From Nitrospirota bacterium (GTDB taxonomy: Bacteria > Nitrospirota > UBA9217): DNA of 58,460 nt. A program made the translations under genes and the position numbers. The stretch lies in contig DASPSR010000064.1 of assembly GCA_035623825.1 (NCBI GenBank), positions 1 through 58,460 on the forward strand, read 5' to 3'. A model generated the notes under the pieces. That model had not been told where the DNA came from, did no database searches, and worked only from the letters and a program-made list of their open reading frames with translations. Positions 10,160-53,391 of this stretch are shown here, one piece after another (positions within the stretch are counted from its first letter, which is position 1; every line of letters starts with the position of its first letter).

Positions 10160-11174
10160 GGGTTTTCTGTTGAGACACCGCCATACCATTGGTGCTCGCC
10201 AGTATCTCTACGACCTTCCTTGCATGGTCAATTCCGGTGATGCATGTCGTTCCTTTTTCGATGCAGTCGATAAAATGGTCTATCTCTACTTTTAGGGGTT
10301 CCTGAAAATCAATCTTCGGAAGAAGCACGTCCCCCGACCGTTGATCAAAGGTCTGGAAGTGCTGGTTATCATAATCCATGTTCTTTCCGAGCTGCGCTTT
10401 TCGATCGATCCCTTTGTCATAAATGGCAATCTTATTTTCTACGGTGTCATCGTAAATGACCATTTTTTTTGAGCCTACGACCACGATGGACCGGATCCTT
10501 TGCGGGTCGAGCCAGCTTACATGGATATTCGCCATAACTTTGTTGGGGTACATGATGTTCAGGAACACAACATCATCAATATTGTTCTGGATGTAGTCTA
10601 TCCCTCTTCGCACAACTGAGAGCGGTGTGGGGTCGCCAAGCCAGTATTGGATGATGCTGATATCGTGAGGGGCGAAATTCCACAGTGCGTCTACATCCGA
10701 CCTGATCCTGCCAAGATTAAGACGCTGGCTGTAAATATAACGGATATCACCAAGCTCACCGGCATCGATAAGCTTCTTGACATATCGAACGGCAGCGTTG
10801 AACAGAAATGTATGACCAACCATTGCGACGCAGTTCTTTTCCTGCGCTATCCTGCCGATTTCATCCACCTGCTCAATGCTTGTCGCTAGCGGCTTCTCAA
10901 CAAGAACGTGCTTTCCAGCCTTCAACGCCTCCACGGCAAGGCCATAGTGTGATGCGACAGGAGTCGCAATGACGATGGCATCAATATCGGTTTTATTCAA
11001 TGCTGCTTTCACGTCGTTGCTTGCGGACAAAGTCGGATACAATTTGCGCACATAATCCATTCTTTCCTGGGAGAGGTCTACAACATCGGTCACTTTGCAC
11101 CGCTTGCTAGACACTAGATTCCTTAAGAGGTTCGGTCCCCAGTATCCTACTCCGAATTGTGCGATGTTCATCAT
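10143..11174 (-). CDS. Gfo/Idh/MocA NAD-dependent oxidoreductase (sugar 3-dehydrogenase-like)
   Basis: GVGYWGPN, GKHVLVEKP, VGHTF, APHD. Confidence 0.93.
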   Translation of the reverse strand: MMNIAQFGVGYWGPNLLRNLVSSKRCKVTDVVDLSQERMDYVRKLYPTLSASNDVKAALNKTDIDAIVIATPVASHYGLAVEALKAGKHVLVEKPLATSIEQVDEIGRIAQEKNCVAMVGHTFLFNAAVRYVKKLIDAGELGDIRYIYSQRLNLGRIRSDVDALWNFAPHDISIIQYWLGDPTPLSVVRRGIDYIQNNIDDVVFLNIMYPNKVMANIHVSWLDPQRIRSIVVVGSKKMVIYDDTVENKIAIYDKGIDRKAQLGKNMDYDNQHFQTFDQRSGDVLLPKIDFQEPLKVEIDHFIDCIEKGTTCITGIDHARKVVEILASTNGMAVSQQKTHASRL

Positions 11175-11223: not shown

Positions 11224-12471
11224 TCAATGCGCCTCAGTCTCGATCGTCAACTGTTGTTTTTCGACCATGGATTGATAGAGGTTGACCAACTCGAACTTAT
11301 GAGTTTCCCACTTATATGTGTCCATAAATCGATATGCATTTTTTGCCTTCTCTTTAATCTTGGCACGATTCCCATAAGCAAAACGAATCGCATCCATTAG
11401 GGAATCGATATTCTCCGGGTCGAAAAAAGTTACCATATCATCAGTGAAATAATGTTCTATAGCCTTTAACCGAGGAACAATTACCGGGATGCCGAGAGCT
11501 ATGCAGTCAAGCATTTTAACAGGCAACATCAGCTCCGTTGCATCACTTCGTCTATTTGGAACCAAGCCCAGATCCATTGTCTTCAATATACCTACCAATT
11601 CTTCAAAAGGGATATTCTTTCCCGAAAATCTCACAAACTCACTAGCATGCAAATTTCGGCTCAGTTTCATGAACTCCTCCAGGTCATCACCCTCCCCTAT
11701 GACATGGAACGTTACGTCCGGGATCGATAATCTAATCTGCGCAACGGCCTTAATGGCAAAATCTATGCCGAGCCGCTTTGCCATGGTGCCATGGTATATC
11801 AGATTGAATTGATTAATCGTTCCAGGATACTTCTTTTGAACCTGCGGAGATTTCAACCGCTCGGGATCCGGCACATTGAGCAAAATAATTATTTTGTCTT
11901 CCGGGATGCCTCTTTTTAGCAACACATCTTTTTGAACATGATTGACGCAAATAACACGGTGGGCTATTTTACACGAAAGAAACTCTTCCATCCTTAGGAG
12001 CGCATTAATGCACATCGAAATCGGCCTGAAGACATTCTTGGGAAACTTAGCGACATATGTCTCAATCATCGTATCATGGATATCGAGAATCAATTTCTTC
12101 CCGATTATCCGTGGTATCACAGCAGCGAAGACAATGAAATTCGGCATGTTATGAACATGCACGATATCAATAGATCTCCGCAGCAGTAGCCCTGTACAGG
12201 CGAAAAAGGCTAGTGTCATGAAAAAGGCGTAGGATAACAGGTATCTTATGCTCGTCTTTCCTTGATATTTCGTGATGTTCAGTTCCCTTACGTTAACCCG
12301 ATTGAGCGTATACCGCTTCGGACGGTCTGATAATTTAATAGTAAGAACTGAGACTTTATAACCGGGTAAGGCCGCTATGGTTTCTGCAGTACGCCTTACG
12401 CGAGGATCCATTGAATAATTCGAGTAGTTAATCATGCAAACGTTTTTGCTTCTTTTCATCTCTTTACGCAT
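11224..12471 (-). CDS. Glycosyltransferase family 4
   Basis: DPRVRR, HVHNMPN, DIHD, YHG, PVKMLD, GT-B fold pattern. Start placed at 12471, overlapping the upstream stop. Confidence 0.9.
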   Translation of the reverse strand: MRKEMKRSKNVCMINYSNYSMDPRVRRTAETIAALPGYKVSVLTIKLSDRPKRYTLNRVNVRELNITKYQGKTSIRYLLSYAFFMTLAFFACTGLLLRRSIDIVHVHNMPNFIVFAAVIPRIIGKKLILDIHDTMIETYVAKFPKNVFRPISMCINALLRMEEFLSCKIAHRVICVNHVQKDVLLKRGIPEDKIIILLNVPDPERLKSPQVQKKYPGTINQFNLIYHGTMAKRLGIDFAIKAVAQIRLSIPDVTFHVIGEGDDLEEFMKLSRNLHASEFVRFSGKNIPFEELVGILKTMDLGLVPNRRSDATELMLPVKMLDCIALGIPVIVPRLKAIEHYFTDDMVTFFDPENIDSLMDAIRFAYGNRAKIKEKAKNAYRFMDTYKWETHKFELVNLYQSMVEKQQLTIETEAH

Positions 12472-14158
12472 GAATATTTTCTGTTGTCTTCCAAAGCTTA
12501 ATCTCAATGTGGGATTCTCCATGCCAAGGAACGCTCATGATGCAGGGTTCACTTTCCACCGCTCTCGATCCTGTCGCAGACGCAGGTATATGAACTCTTA
12601 TCTGCATGGGAGGTAAATCAGCCCAATTAACATCGTTATTCATCAAGGTTACTTGCGCAACACCTTCCCTGAAGGACACATTGCTGAAATTAAGCGTCCT
12701 TCTTCTGCGAAACCACTCAACAGCCAGCTTCGCAACGGCGAACCACGCCCTTTCCGCTTTAAGCATTTGTATCAGCTCGCAATAAAAGCCGTCCCAATTC
12801 CGTTCGGGGCGGAGACTCCTTGTGTGCCAATTAATGGTCAGCACACCGCCTGAAATCCGAAAGCATTCAATGACCTTACGACATGCTTGCATGGCATGGT
12901 ATTCAGACAACCCCATTCTGTCCCGAGAAAAGAGGGCCGTATCCATGATATTGAGCGGAAGTTCATAGACGTTACCATGACCATCCAGACAAAATACTTG
13001 TGTGGTCCCTGACCGAAACCCTGCGGCATCATTGTAACCAAGGCTAGAATCATAAAATAAACCCGATTTGCCAATGGCTTCAGGAGAGCAATCAGCGAAA
13101 TAAAGCCAGTGCATGCGAACTCCAGCAACGTTGTCGCCCGTTATTCCACGAATGACATCACGTTCAGTTGAGGCGCTTTTTGCATCACGCCATGCATCAA
13201 TGCCATGAAGAGCTATCTCCCTCCCTTCATGAGCCAGCTTTTTCAACTCTGGTGCGTAGTCTTTGACATCATATCGTATAGAACGATATGACATCGGTTT
13301 GGTTAATTTCTTGTCCGCTGCCTTTCCCGTGTAATCCTTTCGCGGAACGAAAAAAAACGTTGACGGGATGTCCTTTTCTATTTTCTGATAACAGTCAATG
13401 TCATACCAGGGGTCTCTGACAACGCCAGCATAGGCAAAGGGCATCATAAGAACAGCCTTCCAGTTCCTGAGGAGTCGCGACCAGCGTATTTTCGACTGAG
13501 AATCCCTTAGCGACGGTCGGAGTAGAGACCTAAGAAGAAAACCTATTACCGAGTGATCAATGCCGTGGTCTTTCATCCTTATAAAATCAACGTCATGAGT
13601 GAGACAGACCATGAAATGGTAGCCATACGGGACTGGCGGGATATCGATGATCGGGATGCCTGCGTCTAGAATACATCGTTTCAAAAAAGCTATATGGATT
13701 TCAATCGTTGGAATCGTTGCAAATTCCAATGGCTGTCCTTTGGTCAGCACATACGCGATCTCATCGAAAAGATCATATCCAATGCGGCAGATCCGCTGCC
13801 CTTTCTGCTCTCTCATGTATCCAGCACATAATCCTTTTGCCTTGATATGGAGGAGAGGTATTTCCTTTATTTTAAATATTGACAGTCCGGCATAGACAGG
13901 GAAAATGAATTTTTCGTTTTCGAGAAGCTCTCTACTTTCGCAAGATATTGGTCGGATTCCTGTACGGATGTCGTAAGGGGTAGTTTCTGAACAATATAAG
14001 ATCACAAGAGCCGCTGACGGCACATCATCAGTGCGGCAAGTTATGATTATGGTTGAATACTCACTGCCTTCGCGCCAGAACTCCCATGGCGTTTTAAACA
14101 ACTGAAAGAATTCTTCTACGACAGCTCTCTGATTGTCACGTGCAATTACACCAATCAT
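12464..14158 (-). CDS. Polysaccharide deacetylase-family protein (CE4-like) with N-terminal extension
   Basis: LTHDVD, STFFF, EIALHG, GVRMHWL, YDSSLG, PLNIMD, INWH. Confidence 0.8.
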   Translation of the reverse strand: MIGVIARDNQRAVVEEFFQLFKTPWEFWREGSEYSTIIITCRTDDVPSAALVILYCSETTPYDIRTGIRPISCESRELLENEKFIFPVYAGLSIFKIKEIPLLHIKAKGLCAGYMREQKGQRICRIGYDLFDEIAYVLTKGQPLEFATIPTIEIHIAFLKRCILDAGIPIIDIPPVPYGYHFMVCLTHDVDFIRMKDHGIDHSVIGFLLRSLLRPSLRDSQSKIRWSRLLRNWKAVLMMPFAYAGVVRDPWYDIDCYQKIEKDIPSTFFFVPRKDYTGKAADKKLTKPMSYRSIRYDVKDYAPELKKLAHEGREIALHGIDAWRDAKSASTERDVIRGITGDNVAGVRMHWLYFADCSPEAIGKSGLFYDSSLGYNDAAGFRSGTTQVFCLDGHGNVYELPLNIMDTALFSRDRMGLSEYHAMQACRKVIECFRISGGVLTINWHTRSLRPERNWDGFYCELIQMLKAERAWFAVAKLAVEWFRRRRTLNFSNVSFREGVAQVTLMNNDVNWADLPPMQIRVHIPASATGSRAVESEPCIMSVPWHGESHIEIKLWKTTENIHA

Positions 14159-46205: not shown

Positions 46206-47567
46206 GTGCAAGACACCGCAAAAATACTGATCATTGACGACGAGCGGGTCGCTCTCCGGAACCTTGAGCACGTCATGAAAAAGGAAGGGTACGATGTGAC
46301 GGCTACGCAGAGCGGCCCGAACGCGCTCAAGCTGCTCGATGAACAGCAGTTTGATGTGGTGCTTACGGACCTGCGCATGGAAAAGGTCGACGGCATGCAG
46401 ATCCTGCGGAAAAGCCGTGAGTTTTACCCAGATTCCGAAGTGATCATGATAACGGGCTACGCCACGCTCGATTCCGCCGTTGAGACCATGAAGCACGGTG
46501 CGTTCTACTATATTGCAAAGCCTTTTAAGCTTGAAGAGGTGCGCAAGGTCGTGAAGGAGGCTGTGCACAAGGTCAAGCTCAAAACCGAGAACCGGAACCT
46601 GCGGGAACAGCTCGAAAGCTATCAAGGCAGGGTCAAGATCATTACGCAGGACTCGAACATGGAGAAGACTCTCGAAACCTCACGCCAGATCGCGCCGACT
46701 GATTGCAATGTGCTCATCACCGGCGAGAGCGGAACCGGCAAGGAGCTCTTCGCTCGTTTCATCCACGTGAACAGCAAACGCGCTGAGGGCCCCTTCTTCG
46801 CTCTCAACTGCGGCGCCTTTAGCGAGGATCTTCTATCGAATGAACTGTTCGGTCACGAAAAAGGTGCATTTACCGGCGCCAACAGCATGAAGAAGGGGCT
46901 CATCGAAATGGCGTCGGGAGGTACCCTGTTCCTCGACGAGATCACGGAAATGTCGCCGTCCATGCAAGTAAAGCTCCTCCGCGTTATCCAGGAGAGAGAG
47001 GTCCTTCGTGTCGGTGGAACGGAACCGTTGAAGGTAGACGTGCGGTTCGTAGCCGCTACCAACAGGGACATTCATGATTCCATGAAAACCGGCGCCTTCA
47101 GACAGGACCTCTATTTCCGGCTAAACGTGGTCTCGCTCCGCATTCCGCCTCTTTCTGAACGAAAGGACGATATCCCGCTGCTTTCCTTTTATTTCTTGAA
47201 GAAATACGCCTTGCTTATGAAGAAAGAAGTGACCGAAATCACCGAGGACGTGATCGCACTGCTCATGAATTACGACTTCCCGGGGAATGTTCGGGAGCTC
47301 GAGAACATCATCGAACGCGGTGTGGCGCTAACGAATGGGGCCACCATCGAGTCTGGACATCTGCCCGAGGACCTGCGCGAGCTCAGCATCAAGACCTTCA
47401 GGAAGAAGGAGGGCAAGATACCATCGCTCGAGGAACAGGAAATGGCGTATATCCGTTGGGTGCTGAACGAGGTCGGCGGCAACAAGACCCTCGCCGCGCA
47501 GATACTCGGTATCGACCGGGTCTCTCTCTGGAGGAAGCTCAAGAAGTATGGGCTGGAGACTGATTAG
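46206..47567 (+). CDS. NtrC/AtoC-family sigma-54-dependent response regulator
   Basis: REC domain, GESGTGKE, ELFGHEKGAFTGA, LFLDE, FPGNVREL, Fis-type HTH. Confidence 0.96.
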   Translation: MQDTAKILIIDDERVALRNLEHVMKKEGYDVTATQSGPNALKLLDEQQFDVVLTDLRMEKVDGMQILRKSREFYPDSEVIMITGYATLDSAVETMKHGAFYYIAKPFKLEEVRKVVKEAVHKVKLKTENRNLREQLESYQGRVKIITQDSNMEKTLETSRQIAPTDCNVLITGESGTGKELFARFIHVNSKRAEGPFFALNCGAFSEDLLSNELFGHEKGAFTGANSMKKGLIEMASGGTLFLDEITEMSPSMQVKLLRVIQEREVLRVGGTEPLKVDVRFVAATNRDIHDSMKTGAFRQDLYFRLNVVSLRIPPLSERKDDIPLLSFYFLKKYALLMKKEVTEITEDVIALLMNYDFPGNVRELENIIERGVALTNGATIESGHLPEDLRELSIKTFRKKEGKIPSLEEQEMAYIRWVLNEVGGNKTLAAQILGIDRVSLWRKLKKYGLETD

Positions 47568-47643
47568 TTATCGAAATCACGGTCCGGCATGACTTTTCCC
47601 CTCCTCTATCGCGAGTATCAGGCAATGACCTCAGGAGGAAACA

Positions 47644-48120
47644 ATGGGTTTTGAAGACTTGATTTATGATCTGCAAAATGGCCTCGGCCTGGTCCGAGTC
47701 AAGGCTGCGTCAGAACTGGGGAAGCTCAAGGACAAAAAAGCTGCAGCAGCGTTGAGAGAGGCGCTGAAAGACCCCAATATGGGAGTCAGGAGCAATGCAG
47801 CTTTCGCGCTTGGAGAACTCGGTTCGAAAGATGCGGTACCCCAGCTCCTTGCGCTCCTGAACGATCCCGAAGAGCGGGTAAGAAAGAGCGCCGTTAAGGC
47901 CCTGGGGATGATTGGTTCACGTGAGTCCGTTGCCTCCTTGATCCATGCACTGAATCACGACGCATCACTTATTGTCCGTAGGAGCGCCATCAGAAGCCTG
48001 GGCCAGATTGGCGGACCCAAGGCGATGCAGGCCGTTGAACGCGCTGCTTCAGACCCCGACATCATCCTTGCCGATATGGCGAAAAAGGCAATGGAGAATC
48101 ACAAAAACCATAGGCGGTAA
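47644..48120 (+). CDS. HEAT/PBS-lyase-repeat protein
   Basis: Repeated L..L.DP...VR..A..ALG.IG units; AGGAGG RBS. Confidence 0.88.
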   Translation: MGFEDLIYDLQNGLGLVRVKAASELGKLKDKKAAAALREALKDPNMGVRSNAAFALGELGSKDAVPQLLALLNDPEERVRKSAVKALGMIGSRESVASLIHALNHDASLIVRRSAIRSLGQIGGPKAMQAVERAASDPDIILADMAKKAMENHKNHRR

Positions 48121-48543
48121 AAACCGTCTTTTACGCATATCAAGCCCGTCAATATTTCATCTTGAAATTGGCCCTCCTTCAGACCGAACTCCGCTTTGAA
48201 AGACCCGGCCCAGTCTACCGGTAGTGACTTCCTTTCTTTTTCCTCCAATCGTCCTGTGTGAATTTCTTGCAGGGATTTCATCTGCAACACTCTTGTTCCC
48301 GTGCAGGACTTTTTTTTAGCAGTCTCGTAAAGATCAGAATAAAATGCAAGTGTGTTTGTTCCGCGAATGTCGGCCACTTTTTATGTTTTGATGCTTGTAC
48401 TTTCTTGCTTCTGCGCACCACAAATTCATTCCGGACTGTTTATAAATAATTCTTATGGCGCGTTATGATGATTTTATGGATTTTGTGCACTGAAACGGGA
48501 ACATTTTTCTTGACATCATCTCTATTATTATATTATAAGAAAA

Positions 48544-48579
48544 AGTGCATAATGAAACGATATAGTTGCAAATTGCAAT
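48544..48579. promoter_or_regulatory. Tandem palindromic sites resembling those at 42529-42630, upstream of the second tauE gene
   Basis: AGTGCATAATGAAAC (48544-48558) and GTTGCAAATTGCAAT (48565-48579), 21 bp apart. Confidence 0.4.
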
Positions 48580-48636
48580 TGAATTTTTCAATAATAATTT
48601 TGGATTGGACTCATACGAGGGAGGAAAGGACAAGAA

Positions 48637-49644
48637 ATGGTAGAGCGTAATTTGAAGGTCTTTTTCATGCTGCTGGTCGTTTTAATCGCGCTGACTGCGG
48701 CTGGTGCAGTGTTTGCTTCGTCCGGTACACATGAAGCGGCGGCACCTGCAGCGGTAGAGACGCCTTTGGCTGCGACTGCGGCAAGACCGGCATCGACAGC
48801 ACCTTGGTGGATCTGGCCGCTGGCATTGTTCATCGTGACGTTTATCCTCGGCATTCTGGCTGTCCTCGGCGGCGTTGGCGGAGGCGTGCTTTTTGTGCCG
48901 ATCGTGGGCGGATTCTTCCCATTCCATATCGATTTCGTGAGAGGCGCGGGCCTGCTCGTGGCGCTTGCGGGCGCGCTTGCTGCCGGCCCTGGTCTCCTCA
49001 AGAGGAACCTCGCCAGCCTTCGCCTCGCTCTTCCCGTCGCACTTATCGCGTCGGCAGCTGCGATCGTCGGCGCGATGATCGGCCTCGCCCTCAAGCCGGA
49101 TGTCGTCAATACGCTCCTCGGCGCGACCATCCTGCTCATCGTGGTCATCATGGCGACGGCGAAGAAGTCCGACTTCCCCGTAGTGCCGAAGCCCGATGCG
49201 CTGTCTCAGAGCCTCGGCATCATGGGCATCTACCGGGAAGAATCGCTCGGCAAGGACGTTGAGTGGAATGTCCACAAAACGCCTCTGGGTCTGACCCTGT
49301 TCATCGTGATCGGCATCATGGCCGGCATGTTCGGTCTCGGCGCCGGCTGGGCGAACGTGCCTGTGCTGAACCTCATGATGGGCGCGCCGCTCAAGATATC
49401 GGTGGCTACGAGCAAGTTCCTGCTCTCGATCACCGACACTTCTGCGGCATGGGTATATCTGAACCAAGGCGCGGTGCTTCCCATGATCGTGGTGCCGTCC
49501 CTCGTGGGCATCATGATCGGATCCATCGTGGGCGTGAAGATACTCGCCAAGGCGAAACCCAAGGCCATCAAATGGATGGTGATTGGCCTCCTGCTCTTCG
49601 CAGGAGCTAGATCCCTGCTCAAGGGACTCGGAGTCTGGAGATAG
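48637..49644 (+). CDS. TauE/SafE (DUF81) family transporter
   Basis: GILAVLGGVGGGVLFVP and GIMAGMFGLGAGWANVP repeats, ATS; multiple TM helices. Confidence 0.9.
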   Translation: MVERNLKVFFMLLVVLIALTAAGAVFASSGTHEAAAPAAVETPLAATAARPASTAPWWIWPLALFIVTFILGILAVLGGVGGGVLFVPIVGGFFPFHIDFVRGAGLLVALAGALAAGPGLLKRNLASLRLALPVALIASAAAIVGAMIGLALKPDVVNTLLGATILLIVVIMATAKKSDFPVVPKPDALSQSLGIMGIYREESLGKDVEWNVHKTPLGLTLFIVIGIMAGMFGLGAGWANVPVLNLMMGAPLKISVATSKFLLSITDTSAAWVYLNQGAVLPMIVVPSLVGIMIGSIVGVKILAKAKPKAIKWMVIGLLLFAGARSLLKGLGVWR

Positions 49645-49655
49645 GGGGAAGAAAA

Positions 49656-50075
49656 ATGATGAACGAAAAAACCAAAGCATCGGAAGAACAGATGGCATAC
49701 GCAAGCGTCCTAAGTATCGGCATGTGGTTCGGTCTAGCCTTGCTTATCATCACGTTTATTGTTTACATATCAGGGGTCATCCCGAGCTTCGTTCCGATCG
49801 ATGATCTGCCGAAATACTGGGGAATGAGGGTCCACGATTTCAACCATACTCTCAACGCACCTACTGGCTGGCAATGGGCTGCACTGGTCGGAAAGGGCGA
49901 CTACCTCAATTTTGTAGGTATCGCGATCTTGTCGGGACTCACGATACTGTGCTACCTAGTGCTCCTGCCGATCCTGTTTAGGAAGAAGGATACGGCGTAC
50001 GTCGTTATTGCCATCGTGGAAGTGCTGGTGCTGTCTTTGGCGGCAAGCGGTCTCTTGAAAGCAGGCGGCCACTAA
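49656..50075 (+). CDS. Small membrane protein, TauE partner (DUF1634-like)
   Basis: Three hydrophobic segments, EV.VL.LAASG..GGH end; directly after tauE. Confidence 0.75.
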   Translation: MMNEKTKASEEQMAYASVLSIGMWFGLALLIITFIVYISGVIPSFVPIDDLPKYWGMRVHDFNHTLNAPTGWQWAALVGKGDYLNFVGIAILSGLTILCYLVLLPILFRKKDTAYVVIAIVEVLVLSLAASGLLKAGGH

Positions 50076-50102
50076 TTCACAAGTAAGTTGATAATGAGTA
50101 AT

Positions 50103-50128
50103 CAAGGGCGGCTTTTGAGCAGCCCTTG
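50103..50128 (+). terminator. Stem-loop after the tauE-DUF1634 pair
   Basis: CAAGGGCGGCT-TTTG-AGCAGCCCTTG; weak U-tract. Confidence 0.5.
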
Positions 50129-50161
50129 CTGTTGGTCTCTGGGTATGATTCATGACCGGGC

Positions 50162-50230
50162 CCTTGCGCTCCTCAACGATCCCGAAGAGCGGGTAAGAAA
50201 AAGCGCTGTTAAGTCCCTAGGGATGATCGG
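50162..50230 (+). pseudogene. 69-bp remnant of a second HEAT-repeat gene
   Basis: 63/69 identical to 47847-47915; five of the six differences are synonymous; ends exactly at the duplicated IS right end. Confidence 0.85.
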
Positions 50231-50261
50231 ATGAACTACCCGCCACTAAATTTATGCTGCG
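50231..50261 (-). repeat. Second copy of the IS605 right end
   Basis: atgaactacccgccactaaatttatgctgcg, 30/31 identical to 50448-50478. Confidence 0.92.
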
Positions 50262-50447
50262 TTTGATCGCTCCTTCTTTCTGAGATCCCACTTGTAAGAG
50301 GCTCTACCCATCGGACAGTCTCGCCCTTGTTAACTTTTTTCCAGTAATTCCCATGTACATTTCGTGTAAGAGCGCATGTCCGTGACCGTCCGTATCGCGG
50401 CTTCCTTCCTTGCTGTCGGCTTAGCCCCCGAATTGCTGTTTCTACAG

Positions 50448-50590
50448 ATGAACTACCCGCCACTATATTTATGCTGCGATTATAGTGGGGGTTTCACGGT
50501 TCAAAGAAGCTTGCAGCATAGCGGTTTCCCCGATATGCCGTCTTATGTGCCTCTCCCCGCGCATAACATCGGGCAGTCCCTGCCCTAGTG
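50448..50590 (-). ncRNA. Putative TnpB omegaRNA (reRNA) scaffold overlapping the tnpB 3' end
   Basis: Expected position for IS605 reRNA; hairpins GGGCAG-GGA-CTGCCC and CCACTATA..TATAGTGG. The 5' boundary is approximate. Confidence 0.6.
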
Positions 50591-51914
50591 GTGCCTTTTT
50601 CTTCAGCCTCATGGCCCTTTTCTTCGCCTTTACGGTAAATTCTCCGGCAATCAGTTTTGCGATCCCGCGTGATTTTATGACGCGGGCTGCGTTGATGTCG
50701 GCATTCTCCGTAAATCCGCAGCTCGTGCATTCGAACCCTGCCTGTGACAGGCGATTGTCCGGGTGAGTGTGCCCGCACCGGGAACACTCCTGCGATGTGC
50801 CATGTGGCGGTATCGACAGTACCAGTTTGTTGAGTCTTTGCGCTTTATAATTCGTGAATAGTTTTACTTTGCCCCACGCCGAATCAAGGATTGCTTTGCT
50901 CAAACCAGCCTTTGCCGCGGCGCCGTTCGGGAGATAGCCGCCATGGCCGTTTGGTTTCGGCTTCGGTTTTGCGGTCATGCCCTTTATGTTAAGGTCCTCG
51001 AAGAAGATCACCTCACAGCTCCCGTCCACGATCTTCCTGCTGGCCTGATGCGCGAAGTTCTTGCGGACGTTCATCGCGTACTCACTGCTCTTATGAGCTT
51101 CCCGGAGCGACCTCTTCCAGTTACCCGATCCTTTTGTTCTTCTGGCCATCTGCCTCTGGTATCTCTTCCTCCGGCGATCCTTTCTCGCCATTCGGAAGAG
51201 TTCGACCTTCTTGAATCCGTGGGTATCCCCGGTGCTTTCGGCAACAGGGATATACAATCCCCTGTCAAGTCCCACACTGACCTGCTCGAGTTCTTGCTTC
51301 CCCATGTGGCTGTACAGGTCTATCAGGACCTCTTTGGCCATTTCAGAGCCGGCCTTCTCAAAGGAGAAAGACACGTACCACTTGCCGCTATCCCGGGAGA
51401 CCGTTATAGTTGACGGGAGGTTGTACTCCACATGAGCTTTAAACCTTAGTTCTCCAAGGCCATGGCTCTTCGTCCTGAGCATCAATTTATGACCATAGAT
51501 GATTTTGCCGTTTCGCTTTCTCGTTCTCCCCGTTGGTTCAAACCTGAACAGCTCAGAGGTGAGCCATACGGTTTGTCGCCCCCTGTTTTTCCTGAACACC
51601 GGCCGGCTCGCCAACCCGGAGATAAACCGCTTGTACGCCATCATGAACCGGGTTGCCCCGTTCCTCAGAACCTGAGACGGCACTTCGAAGAGATGCGGGG
51701 TGAGGCTCCTGTCCTTGAAGTGCGAGTACTGCTGGTCAAAGGGGATATCTATCCCGGTGAGGGAAAGAGCCTTGTCCCTGAATTTCCTGAAGTAGCGCTC
51801 TTCGCCAACTTTCGCGTTGTAAATATACCGTTGGCAGTTCATCCAGAAAGTGAGGCTTCTCGCCTGCTCCTCGGTCGGGTAGCATCTGAATTTTACTCCG
51901 CTTGACAGCGCCAT
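50469..51914 (-). CDS. tnpB: RNA-guided endonuclease TnpB
   Basis: KFRCYPT HTH start, RuvC-I GLDRG, RuvC-II FEDL, zinc finger CSRC..CTSC, RuvC-III ADINAA; catalytic D-E-D intact. Start placed at ATG 51914. Confidence 0.95.
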   Translation of the reverse strand: MALSSGVKFRCYPTEEQARSLTFWMNCQRYIYNAKVGEERYFRKFRDKALSLTGIDIPFDQQYSHFKDRSLTPHLFEVPSQVLRNGATRFMMAYKRFISGLASRPVFRKNRGRQTVWLTSELFRFEPTGRTRKRNGKIIYGHKLMLRTKSHGLGELRFKAHVEYNLPSTITVSRDSGKWYVSFSFEKAGSEMAKEVLIDLYSHMGKQELEQVSVGLDRGLYIPVAESTGDTHGFKKVELFRMARKDRRRKRYQRQMARRTKGSGNWKRSLREAHKSSEYAMNVRKNFAHQASRKIVDGSCEVIFFEDLNIKGMTAKPKPKPNGHGGYLPNGAAAKAGLSKAILDSAWGKVKLFTNYKAQRLNKLVLSIPPHGTSQECSRCGHTHPDNRLSQAGFECTSCGFTENADINAARVIKSRGIAKLIAGEFTVKAKKRAMRLKKKAPLGQGLPDVMRGERHIRRHIGETAMLQASLNRETPTIIAA

Positions 51915-51937
51915 GATTCTATTGTATCTTAGGTCGC

Positions 51938-52381
51938 ATGGAAAATCAACCAAATAAATCATTGTCTCATGCGGTATATTTGATTAGGCTGCATATCGTA
52001 TTCGTCACAAAATACCGGAGAAAAGTTTTAAATGCCGAGATGCTTGCCTTCCTGAGGTCGGCATTTGCCGGCATACTCTCCGATTGGAGATGCGGCCTTA
52101 TTGAGTTCGGGGGCGAGGAGGACCATGTGCATATGCTGATCGATATCCATCCCGCGCTCAACATTTCGACACTTATCAACAATCTTAAATCAGCGAGTTC
52201 CAAACGTTTGCGCCGACAGTTTGCGGAACACATCAAGATGTTCTACTCTAAACCCGTCTTCTGGCACAGGGCCTACTATGTGGGAAGCGTCGGCAATGTT
52301 TCGCTGGAAGTCGTTCGCGACTACATCGACCGGCAGGGATCACCGGACAGACCCAGAAAGAAATCCAACCAATCCGCTTGA
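51938..52381 (+). CDS. tnpA: IS200/IS605 Y1 (HUH) transposase TnpA
   Basis: HIVFVTKYRR, EEDHVH (HUH), FW...YY.GSVG, catalytic Y-I-x-x-Q (YIDRQ). Confidence 0.95.
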   Translation: MENQPNKSLSHAVYLIRLHIVFVTKYRRKVLNAEMLAFLRSAFAGILSDWRCGLIEFGGEEDHVHMLIDIHPALNISTLINNLKSASSKRLRRQFAEHIKMFYSKPVFWHRAYYVGSVGNVSLEVVRDYIDRQGSPDRPRKKSNQSA

Positions 52382-52542
52382 CCCTCTCCTGGCGATCTAC
52401 GCCTGGCAGGGGGATTGCGCGGATGTATTAGTTCAAAACCTCTTTTGCCCAATCATTAAAGATTAGCAGCAAAAATGCCGATAACACTAGTTGAAAAGCC
52501 TTAAAGACGGTTAAAGCTACGGGGTCCCTCAAGGGAGGCTAT

Positions 52543-53391
52543 ATGTTCAATAAAACATTACTTTTTCTTTTTGTTTGTCTGCCTCTTCTTTTTAATTGTG
52601 CAGCGCATCATCAGCCAGAAAATTCTCGAATTTTGTCTTCTCATTATCTAATACCCGTATATCGGACCGGGCTTGATGTCAAAGAAGCCCAAGGCGGATT
52701 ATCCATCGAGTCTGTTGATGCCGATTCTCCTGCGAAGGACGCCGGCATCCAACCAGAAGATTTGATCGTAGCGGTCAATGGCAATAGAATCTCGCATAAG
52801 GAATTCCTGAAATTGATGCAGCTGAACAGGGGGGAGGATGTCCACTTCGCAGTAAATCGTTATAACGAAATATTGGATTTTACGATCACACCGAAACTGT
52901 ATTTCAATTCGCCACCGTCTGTTTACATGATATACGAACTTTCGGTCATCGATGAGCAGAAGGTCAATCTGGCTGTCATTGTAACCGATGTAAAGAACAA
53001 TACAAGCGAAGATAACTACTCATGGGAAGAAAACACGAGAAATCAGCTGCAGAGGGACATCGAAAATAATGTGCTCAATAATTTGGACAGCCAAGACGGG
53101 GTATCATTTGTTGATAGATCGCGCCTTGAAGAAATCATCGACGGATATAAGATGAACATGACAGGACTTATTTCAGATAACGCAAGAGCAACAATCGGCA
53201 AAACGACCGGTGCCACTCATATACTCGCGACCACCTTCGCTCGCAATCCGAAGAAAGTAAATGACACTGAAAGTTGCGAGGATACAATAACAGGAAGGCT
53301 GATGGAGGTAGGAAGCGGCAAAGTCCTTGCGGTCGATCAAAGCACTTCAGATTGCAAGCCGGCATTTCTATATACATACAGCAAACGATGA
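52543..53391 (+). CDS. Lipoprotein with PDZ domain and CsgG/HfaB-like domain
   Basis: Lipobox LLFN-C; PDZ SPAKDAGIQPEDLIVAVNG; CsgG-like FVDRSRL..TGLI....IGKTTGA. Confidence 0.75.
   Translation: MFNKTLLFLFVCLPLLFNCAAHHQPENSRILSSHYLIPVYRTGLDVKEAQGGLSIESVDADSPAKDAGIQPEDLIVAVNGNRISHKEFLKLMQLNRGEDVHFAVNRYNEILDFTITPKLYFNSPPSVYMIYELSVIDEQKVNLAVIVTDVKNNTSEDNYSWEENTRNQLQRDIENNVLNNLDSQDGVSFVDRSRLEEIIDGYKMNMTGLISDNARATIGKTTGATHILATTFARNPKKVNDTESCEDTITGRLMEVGSGKVLAVDQSTSDCKPAFLYTYSKR

Follow-up and report, generated by a model that had tools for sequence, protein, structure and literature searches.

The DNA analysed here is a 58,460-nt stretch of one contig from a Nitrospirota bacterium (henceforth the window), and its source genome is a metagenome bin of 67 contigs that is 89.65% complete. 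Read along the + strand, the locus of interest comprises histidine kinase and sigma-54 response regulator genes, a gene for a HEAT-repeat protein, a TauE/SafE-type gene, a DUF1634-like gene, a complete IS200/IS605-family element carrying tnpA and tnpB, and a PDZ/LpoB-like gene (Table 1). Between the DUF1634-like gene and the element lie two further pieces: a short stretch that reads as part of the HEAT gene and, abutting it, a second and incomplete copy of the element's right end. In what follows we refer to the right end of the complete (live) element as RE1 and to the incomplete copy as RE2.

Table 1. Features of the locus, in window coordinates (RE: right end).
Feature	Position	Strand	Details and basis
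Histidine kinase and sigma-54 response regulator genes	upstream of HEAT gene	+ strand order	
Resident HEAT-repeat gene, 158 aa	47644..48120	+	Pfam HEAT_2 1.2e-31, HEAT_PBS 2.5e-26
HEAT-gene segment duplicated at 50162-50230	47847..47915	+	63/69 identical
Uninterrupted counterpart of putative old insertion site	47896..47920	-	GTGAA (47916-47920), then CCAATCATCCCCAGGGCCTT (47915-47896)
TauE/SafE-type gene	48637-49644	+ strand order	ORF list and Pfam
DUF1634-like gene	49656-50075	+ strand order	ORF list and Pfam
Probable HEAT-gene relic	50136..50230	+	reads SLGMIHDRALALLNDPEERVRKSAVKSLGMIG in frame, ends at half right end; alignment
Half right end (RE2)	50231..50265	-	linker TAGTTCAT, 3' hairpin arm, loop; nhmmer E 7.5e-4
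Spacer between right ends (182-186 nt)	50266..50447	.	unique sequence
Flank of live right end, predicted omegaRNA guide	50428..50447	-	directly 3' of RE boundary
Complete IS200/IS605-family element, 1984 bp	50448..52431	-	boundaries from family copies
Right-end hairpin	50448..50491	-	arms 50456-50467 and 50481-50491, loop 50468-50480, linker 50448-50455
Putative omegaRNA scaffold region, overlaps tnpB 3' end	50448..50605	-	family profile positions ~143 to 300
tnpB, 481 aa from ATG at 51914; open frame to 51962	50469..51914	-	Pfam
tnpA, Y1 (HUH) transposase, 147 aa	51938..52381	+	Pfam Y1_Tnp 1.6e-38, profile 2-121/121
TAM / insertion motif TTGAA abutting left end	52432..52436	-	nine left ends
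PDZ/LpoB-like gene	52543-53391	+ strand order	ORF list and Pfam

The live element and its surroundings

We compared the order of genes at the locus with that in related genomes. In the relative G001 the HEAT orthologue comes after the sigma-54 regulator. Window segment 40914-48110, which takes in the upstream genes and HEAT, is conserved there, as is the PDZ gene, whereas the interval between HEAT and PDZ differs and holds an IS110-like transposase and an acyltransferase. The TauE-DUF1634 pair is sited elsewhere, with other neighbours, in G001 and in two further relatives (G002 and G012). Conservation across the relatives is therefore confined, by this synteny comparison, to the TauE-DUF1634 pair (at its other sites), the kinase-regulator-HEAT block and the PDZ gene, and positions 50077-50447 have no conserved counterpart in these genomes. 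Judging by these differences in content, the HEAT-PDZ interval is a rearrangement hot spot. Upstream of the PDZ gene, homology to G001 begins only at ~52455, which places the live element in native PDZ-upstream DNA. We detected no tRNA genes in 47000-53000 and no Rfam matches at E <= 1 across 49900-52600.

The two genes of the live element are divergently oriented. TnpB contains the Pfam domains HTH_OrfB_IS605, OrfB_IS605 and Cas12f1-like_TNB, and it is matched by solved TnpB and Cas12f chains, with LaTranC named among the PDB matches; its similarity to ISDra2-type chains is distant (E 7e-9). When TnpB is aligned to a 408-aa TnpB-type chain, residues D217, E306 and D406 fall on its positions 191, 278 and 361, which we take to be the RuvC catalytic positions of ISDra2 TnpB. 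The nearest TnpB copy in the same genome, on contig C19, is 58% identical.

The ends of the element were delimited by comparison with other family copies. At all 16 loci fetched from G001-G003, as well as in the C19 copy, the right end reads ...TAGTGG(C)GGGTAGTTCAT, with unrelated DNA directly beyond, and this common end sets the right boundary at 50448 for RE1 and at 50231 for RE2. Within the right end, the hairpin is followed by the 8-nt linker TAGTTCAT. At the other side, nine left ends (the window, C19, C24 and six in G001) open with (A)CTAAT, and eight of the nine are preceded by TTGA+A, the exception being C24 with ATGA+C. The comparison with the HEAT gene described below led us to assign the final A to the outside of the element, which gives TTGAA as the motif and 50448-52431 as the extent of the element. 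A palindrome at the left end was noted by eye, without folding. The DNA flanking one end of the live element is unrelated to that flanking the other.

The omegaRNA region folds better than its shuffles (z -2.37), and the family profile shows the last ~158 nt of the element conserved together (positions 143-300), an appearance typical of the omegaRNA scaffold of a TnpB element. Taken as a whole, 50448-52431 holds a Y1 TnpA, a three-domain TnpB with its catalytic triad, hairpins, sharp boundaries and a motif at the point of insertion, i.e., the parts by which an IS200/IS605 element is recognised; it looks intact and is probably active. With the ISDra2, IS608 and ISGst elements it shares the Y1 TnpA, the RuvC/zinc-ribbon core of TnpB, the subterminal hairpins, a guide just past the right end, and insertion on the 3' side of a pentanucleotide that leaves no target duplication. 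It differs from them in the divergent arrangement of tnpA and tnpB, in its TAM (TTGAA) and in a TnpB that is only distantly similar to theirs.

In its function the live element is most likely typical of TnpA/TnpB elements. It sits 3' of TTGAA, about 110 nt upstream of the PDZ/LpoB-like gene, at a site which without the IS would read TTGAA joined directly to CTGTAGAAAC; pattern searches of public genome and metagenome contigs returned no such empty site and no strain without the IS. The anatomy of the element suggests that TnpA would excise and insert it at TTGAA, and, on the TnpB model, its omegaRNA would carry the flank CTGTAGAAACAGCAATTCGG as guide. TnpB may then cut the resealed donor joint, after which the element would be restored by recombination. 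TnpB-driven retention of IS200/IS605 elements, and elements termed PATEs, are among the subjects set out in bioRxiv 10.1101/2023.03.14.532601.

The second right end and its flank

An earlier note on this DNA had reported that the 31-nt right end is duplicated (50448-50478 and 50231-50261, 30/31 identical, with 186 nt between the copies), and that on the tnpB strand the first copy is followed by CTGTAGAAACAGCAATTCGG and the second by CCGATCATCCCTAGGGACTT; both observations were reproduced. A repeat finder extends the similarity to 35 nt (50230-50264 vs 50447-50481, 33/35 or 94%). The two copies are in direct orientation downstream of tnpB, and two right-end matches occurred together in none of 100 dinucleotide shuffles of the window.

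RE2 is a fragment. We built an nhmmer profile on the 3' ends of 12 family members (ten from G001 and G002, C19, and the one in the window) and ran it over the whole genome; it matched RE2 at profile positions 266-300 only (50265-50231). Both the profile and the family comparison bear out the earlier observation that the 5' arm of the terminal hairpin is missing, and the body of the scaffold is absent too, RE2 having retained 35 of about 158 scaffold positions. Identity falls from 33/35 to nothing at a single point, and this abrupt end indicates a breakpoint and not gradual decay. Region 50211-50447 folds no better than its shuffles (z +0.88; 163 of 200 shuffles did equally well).

The sequence of RE2 also bears on its age. 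At the single base by which the 31-nt copies differ, RE2 has the T of the family consensus (TTTAG) and RE1 an A, which pairs with a changed base in the opposite arm and thereby lengthens the stem; since RE2 keeps the consensus base and RE1 has changed, RE2 is not a recent copy of today's RE1. The loop CGCAGCATAAAT, on the other hand, is common to RE1 and RE2 and absent from the G001 and G003 copies, a shared character by which the two appear to belong to one sub-lineage.

What a working end or guide requires can be set against what RE2 holds. A functional second right end has both hairpin arms for TnpA, and 50231-50265 has one; an omegaRNA unit has a full scaffold of ~150 nt upstream of its guide, and neither 50231-50265 nor its flank provides it. 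Without a hairpin for TnpA and without a scaffold for TnpB, the stump is most likely inert, i.e., neither a second transposon end nor the source of a second guide.

The spacer between the two right ends has no other copy in the genome and none in 41 related genomes, and it shows no significant similarity to the IS, to the TnpB, TnpA or HEAT proteins, or to the HEAT-PDZ interval of G001 (best score 23 vs 22.2 +/- 1.9 for shuffles). Two candidate origins were tried and rejected: a decayed omegaRNA or tnpB 3' end, for which local alignment, the family profile and protein comparison all remained at chance, and native PDZ-upstream sequence, for which the score of the G001 alignment lay within the shuffle range. 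A collinear, non-significant alignment of 51 columns between the spacer and the G001 interval starts exactly at 50262. A 20-nt piece of the putative omegaRNA 5' stem had also been said to recur within the spacer (50567-50586 vs 50309-50327). The 17 matching columns of 20 are indeed present, but they are no more than chance would give: shuffles attain the same score of 25, both against the 322-nt interior (mean 18.0, sd 2.5, max 25) and against the two strands of the complete IS (mean 21.7, sd 2.1, max 29), and the family 3'-end profile does not detect it.

The flank of RE2 on its other side proved more informative about origin. It had been described as a 20-nt match to 47896-47915 within the HEAT gene, next to GTGAA. 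The match and the preceding GTGAA hold, but the length does not: a whole-genome search with 50100-52500 and the repeat finder both align 50162-50230 with 47847-47915 over 69 nt (63/69, 91%), and a HEAT-like reading runs back to about 50136, giving a relic of 69-95 nt. Within the HEAT gene the next-best register reaches 34/69, so the match is specific to one HEAT repeat and is not generic HEAT similarity. Relic and resident gene differ at six bases, of which five lie at third codon positions and are synonymous while the other changes Ala to Ser, which argues for a coding copy of the HEAT gene as the source and against a random match; this synonymous bias is the pattern left when two coding copies diverge under selection. 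Both sequences match the G001 orthologue at 55/69 positions, so that each is nearer to the other than to G001. The homology ends exactly at 50230/50231, which is the RE2 boundary. In the intact HEAT gene, read on the tnpB strand, GTGAA adjoins this breakpoint, the family motif being TTGAA at eight of nine left ends.

Origin of the second right end

We consider it very probable that RE2 is what remains, in truncated form, of an older insertion in a HEAT-gene copy, and that this remnant now lies beside the live element. The earlier note had leaned the same way, and the finding that a piece of a HEAT copy, 69-95 nt long, ends at the point of insertion strengthens that view. The feature is thus ordinary in its cause, though the duplication is real. 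IS200/IS605 elements insert without target duplication, and their donor joint is the TAM abutting the right-end flank, as outlined in bioRxiv 10.1101/2023.03.14.532601. The right-end flank thus corresponds to the 3' half of the site landed in, and a version of that gene without the insertion is bound to show a TAM followed by a guide-like match. The resemblance to HEAT beside GTGAA would therefore be inherited from the landing site, and is no sign of targeting.

Under this explanation, an older copy of the same IS lineage would have inserted in a HEAT copy (a paralogue or a diverged allele) 3' of (G/T)TGAA, the motif still kept by the resident gene at 47916-47920. Rearrangement, in one or more later steps and with a break inside the hairpin loop of the right end, would have removed the rest of the old element together with the remainder of that HEAT copy, leaving a 35-nt stump 217 nt beyond the right end of the live element. 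We infer this order of events, and likewise a hairpin-stimulated deletion as the origin of the stump. A whole-genome search found no second HEAT copy in the 89.65%-complete genome, and a pattern search found no IS-in-HEAT junction in public genome contigs. Two other histories built from the same parts were rejected. In a composite element ending at RE2, the left-end flank would be expected to be HEAT and RE2 to carry a hairpin; the flank is native PDZ-upstream DNA and the hairpin is lacking. For a new IS inserted inside an old one, the live element should be flanked by IS-like sequence, and on neither side is this so.

The HEAT piece and RE2 may also have arrived together, imported with neighbouring DNA (e.g., the TauE-DUF1634 cassette) from a related strain with the IS in its orthologous HEAT gene, for example by a single crossover in the 69-nt HEAT homology. 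The order of the locus (repeat 47847-47915, HEAT 3' end and TauE-DUF1634, repeat 50162-50230, RE2) is compatible with such a route, as are the other locations of the cassette in G001, G002 and G012 and the allele-like differences between the two repeats. However, 50136-50161 does not match what precedes 47847 in the resident gene, searches of public genome and metagenome contigs yielded no donor arrangement, and the truncation of RE2 would still require a separate deletion. We regard the import as unlikely, and it would in any case be a variant of the older-insertion explanation and not a functional alternative to it.

A more technical explanation is that the assembly misjoined a piece from a co-occurring strain, whose HEAT allele carried the IS, so that the HEAT relic and RE2 would be an artefact. 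The five of six synonymous differences do look allelic or strain-level, the genome is a metagenome bin in 67 contigs, and the arrangement is known from one metagenome contig, the sole other record of the stretch being that same contig (the remaining metagenome match is one chance 20-mer). Against this, the junctions of the stump and the HEAT relic lie within about 130 nt, a distance that single short reads would be expected to span, and RE1 and RE2 have only short exact runs in common, those on either side of the first mismatch being 19 and 12 nt. A collapse at the right end would moreover lead into the interior of the IS and not into a unique 186-nt sequence, and the left junction, near 50130-50136, is without a repeat. 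With the junctions inside one short-read length and no coincidence with long exact repeats, we judge an artefact very unlikely, somewhat more so than the import.

The proposed second guide or nascent array

The earlier note had raised a functional reading as well, in which the right ends serve as the repeats of a proto-array, read-through from tnpB yields a guide CCGATCATCCCTAGGGACTT, and TnpB binds or represses HEAT at 47896-47915. We found no support for it and give it almost no credence. The same orientation of the two copies downstream of tnpB is what it would predict, a search for a terminator-like site between the right ends found none, and the RE2 flank matches HEAT at 17 of 20 positions beside GTGAA; serial duplication of omegaRNA segments is also a route to CRISPR arrays put forward in PMC10691335. 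By contrast, RE2 keeps 35 of about 158 scaffold positions with one arm of the terminal hairpin gone, it shows no fold signal, and the 186-nt spacing is far from the size of a guide. The mismatches to HEAT (positions 3, 12 and 17) include one close to the TAM, at position 3, and the TAM itself begins with G where the consensus has T. All three RuvC positions are present in TnpB, which is thus not of the nuclease-dead regulator type.

The HEAT match itself was inherited with the 69-nt gene duplicate. A self-targeting guide would match its target independently of common descent, and here the 20-nt match is simply the end of that duplicate. When the first 16 nt of the RE2 flank were searched with up to 3 mismatches, 38 non-self sites were found in the genome and only the HEAT site was preceded by TGAA, which is what descent predicts and does not point to targeting. 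A working second guide made from the stump is accordingly as improbable, in our estimate, as the array itself.

We then asked how right ends are arranged across the family, using an 18-nt RE core (with no more than 1 mismatch) to search 31 family genomes and fetching 1.5 kb on each side of every hit. The core was found at 22 sites in 3 of the 31 genomes, all within the genus. The 5' hairpin arm is kept at 20 of these sites, being absent in RE2 and in a mini-element of G001 (on contig C6, roughly 103 nt). A second core within 1.5 kb occurs at one of 21 places, namely in the window, and at none of the other places in the genus; with tandem cores confined to the window, there is no sign of a selected array. 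What the window holds is two copies at an interval of 186 nt, in an arrangement found at 1/21 places, and this is not a CRISPR-like array. In comparison with omegaRNA-derived or early type V CRISPR arrays, as described in PMC10691335, the locus is alike in having two scaffold 3' termini in direct orientation downstream of tnpB, the layout from which arrays are there proposed to arise. It is unlike them in having one extra, partial repeat, a 186-nt interval, a flank that is the remnant of a landing site, and no conservation.

Other known systems offer looser parallels. Nuclease-dead TnpB proteins (TldR) with a guide matching a host gene for repression are described in bioRxiv 10.1101/2023.11.30.569447, and the likeness to them is one of idea only, since TnpB here keeps D217, E306 and D406 and belongs to a mobile element with tnpA and intact ends, and the candidate guide is without a scaffold. 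Standalone omegaRNAs that act in trans are reported in PMC10691335. As with these and with PATEs, the genus holds gene-less remains of the family: an element of roughly 385 nt with left and right ends (G001:C5:355600-355988), the mini-element G001:C6 and, in the same genome as the window, a solo omegaRNA scaffold with a right end (C7:50091-50245); a scaffold piece without hairpin (C13:93223-93319) is also found in this genome. RE2 lacks a left end as well as a full scaffold, and is unlike both PATEs and standalone omegaRNAs.

Such stumps are common, and one further remnant resembles RE2 closely. At C33:30782-30818 lies a stump with 37 nt of right end (an adjoining inverted piece of scaffold is weak, E 0.21), and its break within the hairpin loop nearly coincides with that of the 35-nt RE2. 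Random decay does not predict such a coincidence, and the shared cut point therefore counts against purely random decay; the near-identical positions hint at hairpin-stimulated breakage. Splitting of an omegaRNA into tracrRNA and crRNA has been proposed, and the half right end might be viewed in its terms as a split crRNA-like unit (loop, 3' arm, linker and flank), with a second, imperfect guide against HEAT. The 3' arm of the stump would then pair in trans with the 5' arm of the neighbouring element's scaffold. We hold this to be a very long shot, on a par with the proto-array; if it were true, the 35- and 37-nt stumps would be a first step towards repeats and not debris.

The older insertion in a HEAT copy, which we prefer as the explanation of RE2, carries a caution: any paralogue or allele of the gene that an element once landed in will mimic a TAM with a nearly matching protospacer beside it. 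When genomes are scanned for nascent arrays or for TnpB guides that target their own host, it should therefore be checked whether a match continues beyond the length of the guide, as it does here for 69 nt. For the family itself, the locus yields TTGAA as a clean TAM and the exact termini of a TnpB element not described before, and the two stumps suggest the terminal hairpin as the preferred breakpoint of right-end remnants in this genus.

HEAT-PDZ interval and start of the spacer

Compared with the corresponding locus on contig C7 of the related genome G001 (L045), the stretch separating the HEAT and PDZ genes is variable. In the window it carries a TauE-DUF1634 pair, which is located elsewhere in G001 and in two further related genomes (G002 and G012); the G001 interval carries an IS110-like transposase and an acyltransferase. 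The edges of the variable interval are marked by the two arms of a 22-nt inverted repeat (82% complementary), one lying close behind the HEAT stop and the other shortly ahead of the PDZ gene. This repeat may be due to chance; further pairs of 76-77% were also found.

Window 50262-50311, the initial 50 nt of the sequence that separates the relic half right end (RE2) from the live right end, gave a weak collinear alignment (~69%) with the reverse complement of L045 (~10304-10354), at a position ~300 nt upstream of the G001 PDZ gene. The alignment begins exactly at the end of the RE2 homology, and its score against this PDZ-upstream DNA was no higher than that of shuffles.

Relatives and remnants of the element

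Other tnpA/tnpB elements, right-end and scaffold remnants in the genome holding the window (G000), and gene-less derivatives in G001 are listed in the table, together with features of the window.

Positions of the features described here (profile: alignment model built from 12 family 3' ends)
Feature	Location	Description
Variable HEAT-PDZ interval	window 48121-52540	
22-nt inverted repeat	window 48122-48143 / 52491-52512	
tnpB stop	window 50469-50471	
Second full tnpA/tnpB element	G000 C19:1664-3650	on 4.2-kb contig; TnpB 58% identical
Left-end/tnpA fragment	G000 C24:38286-38402	
Two distant TnpB genes	G000 C42 ~12287-13862, C67 ~91271-92059	29-30% identical; tnpA accompanies one
Half right end with scaffold piece	G000 C33:30782-30883	half right end 37 nt; scaffold piece profile 141-199, E 0.21
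Solo omegaRNA scaffold and right end	G000 C7:50091-50245	profile 143-299, E 1e-10
Scaffold fragment	G000 C13:93223-93319	profile 159-254, E 2.5e-10; no terminal hairpin
Mini-element (L075)	G001 C6, right end at 501510	~103 nt; TTGAA, 59 nt left end, ~44 nt right end
Left end plus right end derivative	G001 C5:355600-355988	~385 nt

The half right end on C33 is broken in the hairpin loop, as is RE2 in the window, and is directly adjoined by the scaffold piece in opposite orientation; the arrangement resembles a relic that has been scrambled or inverted. The solo scaffold on C7 is a candidate standalone omegaRNA or gene-less derivative. A tblastn search upstream of it found no tnpB, and its flank, AACGTGGGTATATTCTGAAG, has no near match adjoining a TAM anywhere in the G000 genome. 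The C13 fragment sits right behind a gene end. Both derivatives in G001 are gene-less and belong to the same IS family as the live element.

Live right end and 3' end of tnpB

The tnpB frame of the live element spans the entire scaffold region, ending ~68 codons past the end of the TNB domain with a stop inside the right-end hairpin loop. The arms of this hairpin read CTATA...TATAG, as against CTACA...TTTAG in the family consensus, the deviating positions being window 50466 and 50482-50483. At the one base where it differs from the live right end, RE2 has retained the consensus. As the live copy departs from the consensus on both arms, its stem is longer.
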